Below are positions 896 to 57,400 of a stretch of DNA of 64,000 bases, one piece after another. The stretch spans positions 135,036,001-135,100,000 of the forward strand of contig NW_027362767.1 of NCBI RefSeq assembly GCF_046119375.1, read 5' to 3'. The notes beneath the pieces are model-generated. The model had not been told where the DNA came from and made no database searches. It saw only the letters and a list, made by a program, of their open reading frames with translations. The translations under genes were made by a program, and so were the position numbers. Within the stretch, counting starts at the first letter, position 1; each line of letters opens with the position of its first letter. This stretch comes from Phyllobates terribilis. Lineage: Eukaryota.

Positions 896-2326
896 ATCTT
901 AATGAAGGCATTCACAAGGAATACAAAGGGTTGACCACAACCAAACCTCCTAGTCTCCTCGTATGGTAAGTGACCAGGTTCAGCCTATTCTCAAATAACA
1001 GTTGGAAGAACAAACTGTAGACCCAAGTCCAGAAAGGCTCTGGCAAGATGCAGACACTGCCCAGATAGATCAGTAAAGGGAGCAGGTAAGTTTTGATCAG
1101 GTTTACCCTTTTGCTTAGGGTCAAAGAGCAACCCTTCCGTTGGTTCACCTTCTGAGTGGCGATCTCTCTAGCCTGCTGTCCTAATTTTGTTTAGGGTAAT
1201 CCCCCGGGTCAAATTCAATGGCAAGAACTTTTGGACTTTGGGTCCTGGACGGGTGTCCGGGAGATCAAAACCAGGATCTCCTCCCAGCCAGAGATTCACA
1301 CTTATCCCGGTTGATCATGAACCCGAATGCCTCCGAGTAGCGATTTACCTCTGACATCACCCGCTCTGCCTCCCATCAGAGGAAATAAAAACGGTGACAA
1401 TCAGCATACGCCACCACCCGGTCTATCCCGACCCCGGCCAACGGTCCACGCTCCTAAGAAGTGGGTCAATTGCAAACACGTACAGCAGCGGGCTCAAGGG
1501 ACAACACTGGCAAACACAAGACGCAACCTCAAAAGAGCTGCCAATCCAACCGTTCACAAGCAGGAAACTCTCCACCCCAGCGAACAAGGTCTTAAGCCAA
1601 TCAACAAAACTCCCCGACAGACCATACCTCAGAAGGACAGACCAGAGGTACTCATGATTAACCGGATCTAACCCTTTTGCCTGGTCCAGTGACAGCATGT
1701 ACTCCCCTCCAGTGGCCAGCCATACCCTGCTCCACTGCCTCTCGGACACAGAGCACAGCTCTAAATGTACTGCAGCCTAGAACAGAGCAATGCTGAGCCC
1801 CCCGAAAGGAGCCAGGGTGCAAATTTTACCAGCCGATTAAACAGCACCTTTGCCAAAACCTTCCTGTCTGCATTGAGAAGCGCTATGTGACACTAATTCA
1901 CAATGCAAGATGGGTCCTTACTCTTTGACAAGATGATCAGGGCAGACCTCCTCATTGACTTTGGCAGAGTGCCCGAGGAAAGACACTCATTGAATACCTC
2001 ACTCAAGAGGGGAACCAAGACGTCCTTAAAGGTCTTATAGAATTCAGATGTTAAGGCATATGGACCGGGACATTTCTTTACGGCAAGCCCTTCAATCGCC
2101 AACTTAACTTCCTCTTCCCTGGTTATCACTGTCAAAACGCCAAGAGAGGGGTTTACCCCAGGTTCAGGGATGGCTTCAGCCAGGAAAGCCGACATCCCAT
2201 CCCAATCAAGATCCCTCTTCTCCAAGAGGGGCGAGTAGAAGGATCTGACGACCTCCAGGATCCCTGATGTGGATCTTTTCAGTGACCCCGCAGTGTCAAC
2301 CAGTCCTGTAACTACTTTACTATTCA

Positions 2327-3060
2327 AGTACACCAAAAGAAAAAGTGGGCACTGCTGGGGAATAATAATCACAAATAGAAAGGGGTGCTACAGTAACCCG
2401 ATGTAAAGACACAAAATTATTCGGAAGAAAAAGACTCAGGATATATAACCATGCACACCCAATGTTGGAAAAGTGAAAAAAATCTTTATTACATGATTAC
2501 ATTTAGACAACAAAAGAAAAAATTATTAAAAGCATTTAAAACTGACAAAAACATGTGCAATCTTCATATGGGGGAATTCATGATAATAATATGCATAAAA
2601 ATAGCAATAAACCCCATTATGTTATGTGCCACAGGTATATTTTACATCACTTATATAACATTCGATCAATGTAGACCACCTAAGCAACCCTGGCTATAAA
2701 TAGCACAGCACAACCAGTCAAAATATGTGTTTATGACAAAGCAAACCCCCCTAAATAATATAAGTGAATCAAGGAATGAGTAGGAGAGATGGTCTATTGG
2801 CAATGGGGGCCCATATTTTAGGGGTATTGGCCAAGTTGTGTCACCAAAGTCATATATGACGTGGCACAGTTGATACAAATATAAATAACAGGCCAGGCAT
2901 TCCTGAGTGGTCAAGTCAAGAAAATAAGTAAATAAAAAAATATATGGAAGAATAATTACCTGCTGGCACCAGAGACCCTACGCGTTACGCTGCTCAGACG
3001 CAGCTTCGTATACCCCATATGAAGATTGCACATGTTTTTGTCTGTTTTAAATGCTTTTAA
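2327..3060 (-). mobile_element. Non-autonomous Penelope-like insertion with 14-bp TSD and hammerhead remnant
   Basis: TSD tactttactattca at 2313-2326 and 3061-3074. 48-bp inverted repeat at 2526-2573 and 3013-3060 (47/48 identical). Hammerhead-like remnant at 2972-3009. Removing the insert restores Tx1 coding continuity (SVNSKV|VTGLVDT). Confidence 0.7.
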
Positions 3061-54394: not shown

Positions 54395-54477
54395 CTACAA
54401 GCAGTGCAGCTCCTGCAGAGTGTCGTCCAACATCTTCTGCATCTTCACATTCTCCTCCTTGGTGATTCTCAGCTTAT
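54395..54477 (-). CDS. TPM3: TPM3 exon 9d (cytoskeletal C-terminus)
   Basis: 83 nt, encodes [27 protein letters not shown]. Minus-strand AATAAA at 53870-53875 and 53696-53701. Confidence 0.92.
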
Positions 54478-57400
54478 CTGCAGGACGAAGAGAGAGGCGT
54501 CATGGGTGGACTACAACTCCCAGCATAGCAGAGCACCGGGCCACACACCAGGTGGCGCCAGAGAGGCCTCAGCGCACACAGTCTTCGTGTGAGGTAGTCG
54601 CTGGCGAGCGGCCCTGAACCAGAATCACTGTATAGGGGCACATCATACTCCACACACATCCAGAGCAGCACAGGCCACAGCGGGGACCATACTCCACACA
54701 CATCCAGAGCTGCACAGGCCACATCGGGGACCATACTCCACACACATCCAAAGCTGCACAGGCCACATCGGGGACCATACTCCACACACATCCAGAGCTG
54801 CACAGGCCACAGAGAGTCTTGTATGCCACACACATCCAGAGCTGAGCGCAGGGAGCAGCTGCAGTCGGTGAATATTATCCGCAGCCCCGGATGTGACTGG
54901 AGCAGAGCAGGAAAGACTGCTGGACAGTGCTGATTTATGTGAGGACAGCATTTAATCAGTCAGTAGGCCAGGAGACAGGCTAGTATCTTTATGTTGACTT
55001 CTGATGTGTTTTTCTTTGGTTGGTCAATAAACTATTATTTGTATGAGCCTGAATGTTGACACTTGAGTTGATATCTACTGCAACTTATTGTCTGCTAACT
55101 TTGCAAGTCAGGGACACAATGAATGTTTGCTAAATATGTTAATTGACCATTGTGTGGAAAACAGAGAAGTACGAACAATGCAGATCCATTAAATGCTGAA
55201 ACATTGAGCGTTAAACTCATCCCACCTCCCCCCTGACCCGAGCCACAGATGTAAATATATAAAGGGATTTCTATCCTTCTGCAAGAAGAATCAGAGTGAA
55301 TTACCAGAGCAACAGCTAGGACAACATGGCTCCATCAAGAGGGACCCCAGACAGTTTAGAGGACCACAGATCTGCTCCATTGAATATCAATAGCCCCATA
55401 GATATGTTTGAAGAAGCCAGGTTGGGACCCTCAGGTCACCTGGACACGTGCCTCACTGGACTTCCTAAGTTTGTTGTTATCTCCTGGAACTTGTGAAATA
55501 ACCTCAGCACTCAAACTGTGATGGGTTTATATTGAATTTTAATGCAGTCCAAATACAAATCAAAACCAAACGTTTCGGCCTAAACATCAGGCCTTCATCA
55601 GTGTGGCGAGACTGCTGAATGACTCAGGTGTGTGGGGGGAATGGGCGGCGTGCCTAAGGTGATGTGCATCACTGGTCTGTGACGCTGTACCAAAGTGGTC
55701 TGGGAGCTGGAACGCGGCGTCCACTGCTGGTTTAGTTGGGGACTCACCCTGAACCAGTGGTGGACGCCCCGTTCCAGCTCCCAGACCACTTTGGTACAAC
55801 GTCACAGTTTGAGTGCCGAGGTTATTTCATCACAAGTATTTGGGTTTGGACCCTACTCGTGCACCAGTCCAGTTGTGCAGCGATTTCTCTTTAAGTTATC
55901 TCCTGGAAGCCCCGGAGTCGCAGCTGCTCTAATCCCGGGGAGTCAGCGGAAGGGGGAGACCCTGTCATTTGCACCATCTTGTGTATGTACTGGGACTGTT
56001 ATTGTCTGTTAAGTATTACTGCACTGTCTTACCCTTACCCTATGTTGTCGGAGTAGTATTCTGTCCTTGGGAGACCCAGGGTCTCCACAATTTACACCAA
56101 GAAGCCGAGCGGGGGGCCAAGGACACAATGGGGATCCGGGGTCAGCACCATGTCTGGTACTTGGCTTGGGGGAACAGCCGTGATCAATTCTCTCCCCTCC
56201 AGCTCCCGAGACCAGGGCAGCGCTGTGACCTCCAGAGTACGGAGGAGACACAGTCAGGGCTAGGAGACAAGAGCTGGAGCCGTGTACAGTGTATGGCCAC
56301 GGTCCCACTATCAGTATTTGGTCAGTATTTTTTCTCAGGAGTGGGAGCCAAAACCAGAAGTGGGTGATAAATGCAGAATTGGTGACTTGTTTCTATTATA
56401 CCTTTTCTCTGATTGTTCCTCACCTGGTTTTGGCTCCCACTCCTGAGAAAAAATACTGCCCGAATACTGATAGTGTAAGGCCATGGCCCAAGAGTGAACC
56501 TGAGAAAACATCCTCCAGAGCTGCAGGGATCATAGCAGCAGAATAGTGACTGCAGCTCTGGAGGTGATTGAAGAATAAGGCAGGATGTAACAGAAGAATG
56601 AGTGCAGCTCTGGCTGTGACTGGTGGATAACAGCAGAACAGTGACTGCAGCTCTGGAGGTGGCCAGAGTACATGACACCAGACAGGGAAGAGATGCAGCT
56701 ATGCTCTTGCAGACGTCGCCCCAATGACGTTACTACACGGCTGGGAAGAAAGAGGCGGCTGCACACAGCGAGTGACAACATGGAGGTTTATTAGATACAG
56801 GACATGATGCAGGTGCCCCCCATCGCTCTAGTCCCCCCCACAAGCAGCGGTGCACCAGCCCGGAATACAGCTCCATCCTGTGTAAATAAAGCCCAGTCCG
56901 TGTACAGTGTTCTCAGCGCTGAGCGTTTGTTACCATGTATCTGTATAGACAGACATCTCATGACACGAGGGTCGGTCACAGTGCATTGGTGCGGACTGAT
57001 CACAGTGTAACGAGGCCTCAGCTGTGAGACGCATCAGGTCCTTTACTGACAGCAAGCAGAGATCTCGGGAACTGAAACCAAGCTTTATTTACAGGAGAGC
57101 GACAAGACCCTGATGAGGTGAACTATAAGTCCCAGCATTTCCACAGTCTGGGCATGGCATGCTGGGAGTTGTAGTGTCCTAGCCGGGAGGAGATGGCTGC
57201 ATTACAGATCTGAGAGCAGTCCTCCACTCCGCAGGGGGCAGCACAGGTGGTGGCGGTGTGTACGGACAGGGGACGCCCCTCAGTCACACAGGTCATGGAG
57301 AGTCACCTTCAGCTCACTAGCGAGGAGCCGGTTTTTATCCATTTGGCTGTAGAGACGCTCTGCGGGGGAGGGCGGAAGAGACAGAGGGGGTGGGGAAGAG

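Follow-up and report, generated by a model that had tools for sequence, protein, structure and literature searches.

Results

The window analyzed here is a 64,000-nucleotide stretch of the Phyllobates terribilis genome (G000:C7:135036001-135100000; genome size, 10.6 Gb). It carries JTB, a Ras-family gene that we take to be RAB13-like, RPS27 and tropomyosin-like exons, presumably those of TPM3 from synteny. Among these genes lie four short inserts, I1 (2327-3060), I2 (17992-18537), I3 (44259-44963) and I4 (55490-55894), which our results identify as fragments of Penelope-like elements (PLEs). An earlier note, made from this DNA alone, had described four inserts with target-site duplications (TSDs) of 14-16 bp, each having one inverted arm, a one-sided tail and no open reading frame (ORF), and this architecture is borne out in every case (Table 1). 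The inverted arms match over 54 nt at 96% identity in I1 and over 125 nt at 90% in I2; those of I3 are about 260 nt each, with 69% identity over a gapped fold, and I4 combines a 28-nt inverted arm at 96% with an inner 131-nt hairpin. The unpaired tails measure about 193 nt in I1, 96 nt in I2, about 103 nt in I3 and 65 nt in I4, and the longest stop-free frames of the four inserts span only 58-103 aa. I2 and I3 do share a tail motif (gatgtgccagc...tcatg..tttggg...cat), as had been proposed. Two inserts sit in introns, also as proposed: I3 in the last intron of RPS27 and I4 between two tropomyosin-like 3' (last) exons (PDB match, E=0.02).

Table 1. Parts of the four inserts, with positions in the window
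Feature	Position	Strand	Description
I1 left TSD	2313..2326	.	14 bp, exact repeat; single copy in 11/11 empty paralogous sites
I1 long arm	2327..3009	-	pLTR piece (term defined in the text) from an autonomous PLE, reaching from within the hammerhead core to the shared 3' end; unpaired tail 2327-2519
I1 hammerhead remnant	2975..3009	-	first CUGA-core bases lost at the junction; motif whole in sister copies
I1 short inverted arm	3013..3060	+	copy of about 2526-2573
I1 right TSD	3061..3074	.	14 bp, exact
I2 left TSD	17976..17991	.	16 bp, 2 mismatches
I2 left arm	17992..18319	-	pLTR piece without tail or hammerhead; collinear with L092-L094 at 84-92%
I2 right arm	18317..18537	+	tail 18442-18537; family lies behind a PLE endonuclease end in L112-L117 and L132
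I2 right TSD	18538..18553	.	16 bp, 2 mismatches
I3 left TSD	44245..44258	.	14 bp, exact; in the last RPS27 intron
I3 left arm	44259..44522	-	without tail
I3 right arm	44523..44963	+	starts inside a U3-A8 hammerhead (3' half, 44523-44540); tail 44861-44963
I3 right TSD	44964..44977	.	14 bp, exact
I4 left TSD	55476..55489	.	14 bp, exact
I4 left arm	55490..55745	-	doubly spliced pLTR leader; joins near 55677 and 55606
I4 hammerhead core	55572..55601	-	whole, minimal; CUGAUGA...GAAAC
I4 fold-back copy	55746..55807	+	copy of the 5' end of the left arm
I4 right arm	55802..55894	+	tail 55830-55894; family lies behind a PLE endonuclease end in L127 and L129
I4 right TSD	55895..55908	.	14 bp, exact

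Repeats of at least 12 bp seldom arise by chance: of 1260 pairs with swapped flanks none had one, and of 1500 random window pairs one did. Nor did such a repeat flank any of five other inverted repeats of the window. I1 and I2 lie within repeats themselves, and their insertion is confirmed by empty sites in paralogous copies of the host repeats: I1 interrupts a high-copy repeat in which 11 of 11 paralogues have an empty site with one copy of the TSD, and 8 of 11 paralogues of the I2 host repeat run collinearly from the left flank into the right. Each of the four inserts is a dispersed repeat in the genome. The earlier note had also spoken of a dense population, for which there is weak support at best: a single detector, which missed I2 and I4 and was applied to a window chosen after the fact, gave 2 matches in the 64-kb window against 1 plausible independent match in 403 kb of flanks. 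The 6 matches in those 403 kb comprised 4 from one tandem-repeat artefact (L173), 1 relative of I3 (L131) and 1 plausible insert (L154). Local enrichment is therefore unproven.

Identity of the inserts

All four families continue, elsewhere in the genome, into PLE frames encoding reverse transcriptase (RT) and endonuclease, in agreement with the Penelope origin suggested earlier. The long arm of I1 is 97% identical to the pseudo-long terminal repeat (pLTR) of a tandem element at loci L121 and L122, organized as ORF-pLTR-ORF-pLTR with a 5143-bp period; such a tandem pLTR organization was seen for the I1 family only. One copy of this parent retains an intact 878-aa frame with RT motifs, a linker with the pattern CxxCxxC and a GIY-YIG domain (Pfam E=8.5e-4, below the curated cut-off), and relatives of the protein carry RVT_1 and GIY-YIG. 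The I2, I3 and I4 families have collinear PLE RT/endonuclease remnants with 26-47% identity to the 878-aa frame, and relatives of these inserts immediately follow the ends of PLE endonuclease sequences and share their orientation; for I3 these are L130, L131 and L135. Because I1 matches its parent's pLTR and relatives of the other three follow endonuclease ends, all four inserts are pLTR pieces with their 3' ends facing outward. An inverted 5'-truncated copy with a one-sided tail accompanies 45 of 86 I1-family copies, and two-arm relatives are present in the other three families. We are thus nearly certain that the inserts are head-to-head, 5'-truncated pLTR stumps of RT/GIY-YIG PLEs.

Several observations on these elements stand apart from this identification. 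A copy of the I1 parent other than the one with the intact frame has a second, upstream frame of 245 aa (L121:2049-2783) with no Pfam match, which overlaps the RT frame (L121:2645-5131) in the -1 phase; a TTTTTTA heptamer at L121 2651 is in the phase expected for -1 frameshifting. Three predicted frog proteins (P0018, P0045 and P0062) join pieces of the PLE frame to C2H2 zinc-finger domains and may be annotation chimeras. Two arrays, one at G000:C11:379.6-380.5 Mb and the other at 398.9-401.4 Mb, repeat every 145-175 kb or so and carry the same I2-like PLE stump in each unit, which suggests large tandem segmental duplications.

Outer ends and pairing of the arms

The I1 family is young (97-99% identity) and was sampled with a 26-mer near the 3' end of I1, which had 179 exact matches; 90 of these, most of the first 100 listed, were fetched in chromosome order. 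Four (L139, L141, L162 and L164) were partner arms or inner tandem copies and were dropped, leaving 86. Positions are given as x, the number of bases upstream of the usual 3' end. A common outer end, at x-10..11, is found in 82 of 86 copies, a count partly conditioned by the position of the search pattern (x18-43). The inverted arms have an end of their own: 21 of 36 complete inverted arms finish at x83-91, about 87 nt further in. With 12 bp as the lower limit, TSDs flank 25 of the 36 complete two-arm copies, and 20 of the 21 with an x83-91 end; they measure 13-17 bp.

The two arms of a copy derive from one source element, since own arms are discordant at 9 of 141 haplotype sites as compared with 30% for unrelated arms. 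Yet in 11 of the 36 complete pairs the arms are not nested, each containing over 20 nt absent from its partner; neither arm can therefore have templated the other, and simple fold-back is insufficient. Two different template RNAs were considered and ruled out, as the rule for the I1 family by the same 9 of 141 discordant sites and for I3 because its arms carry deletions that are private relative to their relatives; the differences between the I3 arms hence reflect age.

Inner ends and passage through RNA

The inner ends of the I1 family are not scattered evenly. Of 57 primary arms that reach the hammerhead, 21 stop within x646-690 (rate ratio 12, p=1e-14), with nine at x686-690, three at x648-653, near the predicted cleavage site, and the others in between. 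Eighteen of the 21 lie upstream of that site, which is kept uncut. A TATATAA box stands 31 nt above x688, and the distance from a TATA-like box to the pile-up is similar in the four families (31, 30, 30 and 33 nt). Several copies of the I2 and I3 families start 30 nt below the box, immediately 5' of stem I of the hammerhead. Seven distinct spliced copies were scored in the I4 family; all of them end some 33 nt below a weaker box and about 140 nt upstream of the hammerhead. As this last pile-up is far from the ribozyme but at the usual distance from the box, the inner ends track the TATA-like box and not the hammerhead. Several inner ends have an extra base that a cap might have templated, some of these bases being explained by the TSD.

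I4 itself lacks two GT-AG introns of 79 and 149 nt, as judged by alignment to unspliced relatives. In the family these introns measure 73-84 nt and 149-151 nt; they are present in L018, L019 and L026 and absent from the window copy and from L005. Their absence means that I4 was copied from an RNA template, and the passage through RNA claimed earlier is upheld. Only donor and acceptor look-alikes were seen in the I1 family. Four assembled contig sets, from runs of uncertain type, cover the parent pLTR and contain no splice joint or start, neither of which such contigs are able to show. As a separate observation, one I4-family copy (L016) has a non-duplicating inversion, its 5' part being inverted with the break inside an intron, like classical twin priming.

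Hammerhead motifs

Predicted hammerhead motifs occur in the pLTRs of all four families, although an Rfam scan, one of the checks suggested in the earlier note, gave no hammerhead at E<=1, the matches being generic microRNA hairpins below gathering scores. The I1-family core (CUGACGA...GUAA) has GUAA where GAAA is usual and is conserved across the copies seen (L035, L124 and others), and the I2 and I3 families have a U3-A8 variant. Two of the four inserts had been credited with hammerhead cores. Only the core in I4 is whole; that of I1 is cut by the junction, the half-motif in I3 had been overlooked and I2 has none. A hammerhead near the I2 relative L133 was rejected because it belongs to unrelated sequence between the arms. 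The two arms of L172 end at x648 and x647, the predicted cleavage site, and may be a record of cleavage in vivo.

Discussion

Our results suggest that the stumps arise by twin target-primed copying of a 5' leader with run-off at the transcript start, and we consider this mechanism as a whole to be probable. The PLE endonuclease would nick both target strands about 15 nt apart, and RT, primed by each 3'-OH, would begin at one of two internal sites of the element's own 5' leader RNA. The distance between the two starts would set the one-sided tail, at about 87 nt in the I1 family, 80-100 nt in the I2 and I3 families and 45-65 nt in the I4 family. If RT began on the 5'-proximal copy of the site and not on the copy behind the ORF, synthesis would run off at the transcript start or stop earlier. 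Repair could then fuse the two cDNAs in head-to-head orientation, in many cases by way of microhomology or a brief fold-back. Hammerhead cleavage would account for no more than a minority of the ends, and the stumps may well be dead-end by-products made in cis.

There is some published support for these steps. Work on Poseidon PAc, a PLE of Anolis, found that the protein, a predicted dimer, nicks and extends both strands in vitro, that RT starts internally at two sites, which define the tail, and that hammerhead cleavage is dispensable (PMC11167929). The proposed mechanism agrees with this behavior. PAc belongs to another PLE clade, and the part of that paper drawn on here gives no account of head-to-head pairs or transcript-start ends. 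A start site and a leader intron in the Penelope pLTR (PMC2377424, PMC8557442) also agree with the proposal. A more specific reading, which we hold to be about evenly balanced, is that the stumps preserve in the genome a step of the PLE cycle not described before, in which a dimeric RT-endonuclease would use both nicks and two fixed sites on one leader RNA and run off at the capped start, as in retroviral strong-stop DNA, the template being spliced or unspliced and only occasionally hammerhead-cleaved. If this is true, the DNA of any PLE family could by itself reveal where transcription and RT begin, whether the RNA was spliced and whether the ribozyme was used.

A number of our observations weigh against twin priming with run-off. 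The transcript start is a predicted one, placed by the positions of DNA ends and of TATA-like boxes; the boxes match poorly in the I3 and I4 families, and 12 of the 21 hammerhead-region ends, at x648-681, fall short of the predicted start. The samples of the I2, I3 and I4 families are small and consist of best BLAST matches, not random picks. Fifteen of the 36 inverted arms end away from x83-91, and the short arm of I1 in the window, with its long tail, ends at an atypical site. The promoter of Drosophila Penelope is internal and TATA-less (PMC2377424), so that a stump starting at +1 need not be promoterless. Moreover, the junction is symmetric to within 20 nt in 11 of 45 pairs, the outcome expected of fold-back or self-priming, and self-priming on an antisense template is the route favored in PMC3846280.

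These last points lead to the principal alternative, in which target priming yields a single cDNA. The inverted arm would be added when this cDNA folds back or primes itself, or by self-priming on an antisense template, and the tail would remain once the endonuclease had resolved the intermediate. Such a route has been proposed before (PMC3846280, PMC8557442) and would account for the near-symmetric pairs, for arms that share haplotypes and for the short fold-back segments at the junctions of I4 and several I1-family copies. It fails for the non-nested pairs, and the fixed outer end at x83-91 suits a start site better than a random stop; we therefore regard it as unlikely. Less likely still is that the inner ends are determined by the hammerhead, either self-cleaving within the template or causing RT to stall at its structure. 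The 12-fold excess of ends at x646-690, the exact ends of L172 and the I1 and I3 junctions of the window, both inside a hammerhead, fit this reading, but the cleavage site is uncut in most of the primary ends that stop there, the I4-family arms traverse the hammerhead whole before stopping, and cleavage is dispensable in vitro.

The earlier note had viewed the inserts as a self-standing population of non-autonomous PLE-like or retrozyme-like elements that self-cleaving RNA would mobilize in trans. Retrozymes and non-autonomous derivatives of PLEs do exist, also in frogs, the inserts lack ORFs and the spliced short copies of the I4 family are similar in length. However, the families are pieces of PLE pLTRs, the four inserts contain no head-to-tail monomer arrays, three of the four lack a whole hammerhead, and junctions and TSDs are unique to each copy. 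In addition, the hammerhead-ending copies of the I1 family (22) share haplotypes with the long ones (33; permutation p=0.18) and form no haplotype group of their own. Hence we think self-propagating families mobilized in trans very improbable, and the differing junctions, together with the mostly uncut cleavage sites, speak against a self-cleaving RNA as the vehicle. Hairpins of miniature inverted-repeat transposable elements (MITEs) or other DNA transposons are suggested by the inverted arms and short length. The earlier remark that the inserts resemble MITEs without being such was correct: arms are asymmetric, tails are one-sided, TSDs of 13-17 bp vary in sequence, and the continuity with PLE frames and the loss of two introns refute a MITE origin, to which we assign a negligible probability.

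The layout and the family type of the stumps are already known. The published unit of endonuclease-positive PLEs consists of a pLTR and, next to it, a 5'-truncated copy in inverse orientation, and it has a TSD and a tail on one side only (PMC8557442, Fig. 2 legend; Adineta Pen2a, PMC3846280). Our inserts resemble it, as far as the cited parts of these papers describe it, in the head-to-head inverted pLTR, the tail, the TSD, the pLTR hammerhead and the partial tandems. They differ in tails of 45-100 nt instead of 30-40 nt, in the lack of ORF sequence and, from Adineta, in TSDs of 13-17 bp as opposed to 8-10 bp (PMC3846280). The L122 frame joins RT to endonuclease by a linker, CGNCSAC, of the CX2-5CxxC type, which makes the I1 parent a candidate Neptune-type PLE, with Nematis a less likely assignment; from Neptune-type PLEs as described in PMC8557442, its separate upstream frame sets it apart. 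The hammerheads are like the minimal ones of metazoan PLEs (PMC4209133) in their short palindromic helix III, the U3-A8 variant of the I2 and I3 families and, in the I4 family, an intron end abutting helix I. That paper ascribes scattered single hammerheads and opposite-strand pairs to truncated PLEs; the GUAA variant of the I1 family was not found in the portion of it cited here. Non-LTR retrozymes (bioRxiv 10.64898/2026.07.22.740005) are likewise pLTR-derived and non-coding, with a type I hammerhead, but are described there as head-to-tail tandems with a whole hammerhead per unit, whereas the inserts are single head-to-head pairs with a whole core in only one of four. A search of the open literature, supplements apart, turned up no description of PLE twin priming or of run-off at the transcript start; subscription papers (Arkhipova 2006; Evgen'ev and Arkhipova 2005) and supplements may contain one.

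Twin priming is familiar from L1, in which both target nicks prime on the RNA and the 5' part becomes inverted. L1 inversions do not duplicate the 3' end, whereas both arms of the PLE stumps usually copy the same region from two fixed starts. The present work contributes copies sampled in order of position and with controls, a copy that was spliced, and a family whose pile-up lies apart from the hammerhead. For annotation, hairpins of this kind are PLE stumps, neither MITEs nor a new class of retrozyme. PLE integration is still poorly understood, and the proposed mechanism bears on the role of the PLE hammerhead in vivo. It also makes predictions at nucleotide level in a young family whose parent frame is intact, namely nicks staggered by about 15 nt, two RT starts separated by 87 nt and transcription beginning 31 nt below the TATA box.

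Other repeats of the window

Between RPS27 and the tropomyosin-like exons lies a homogeneous tandem array of a 42-bp unit (48339-53115; about 107 copies, 97-98% identity), and about 9 kb of GC-rich short-period repeats (about 30750-40100) separate the first exon of the Ras-family gene from RPS27. A Tc1-type transposon (13668-15228) has long terminal inverted repeats and a transposase frame. Symmetric, MITE-like hairpins at 15872-15993, 19282-19578, 26262-26348 and 56306-56475 are, unlike the four inserts, without long flanking duplications.

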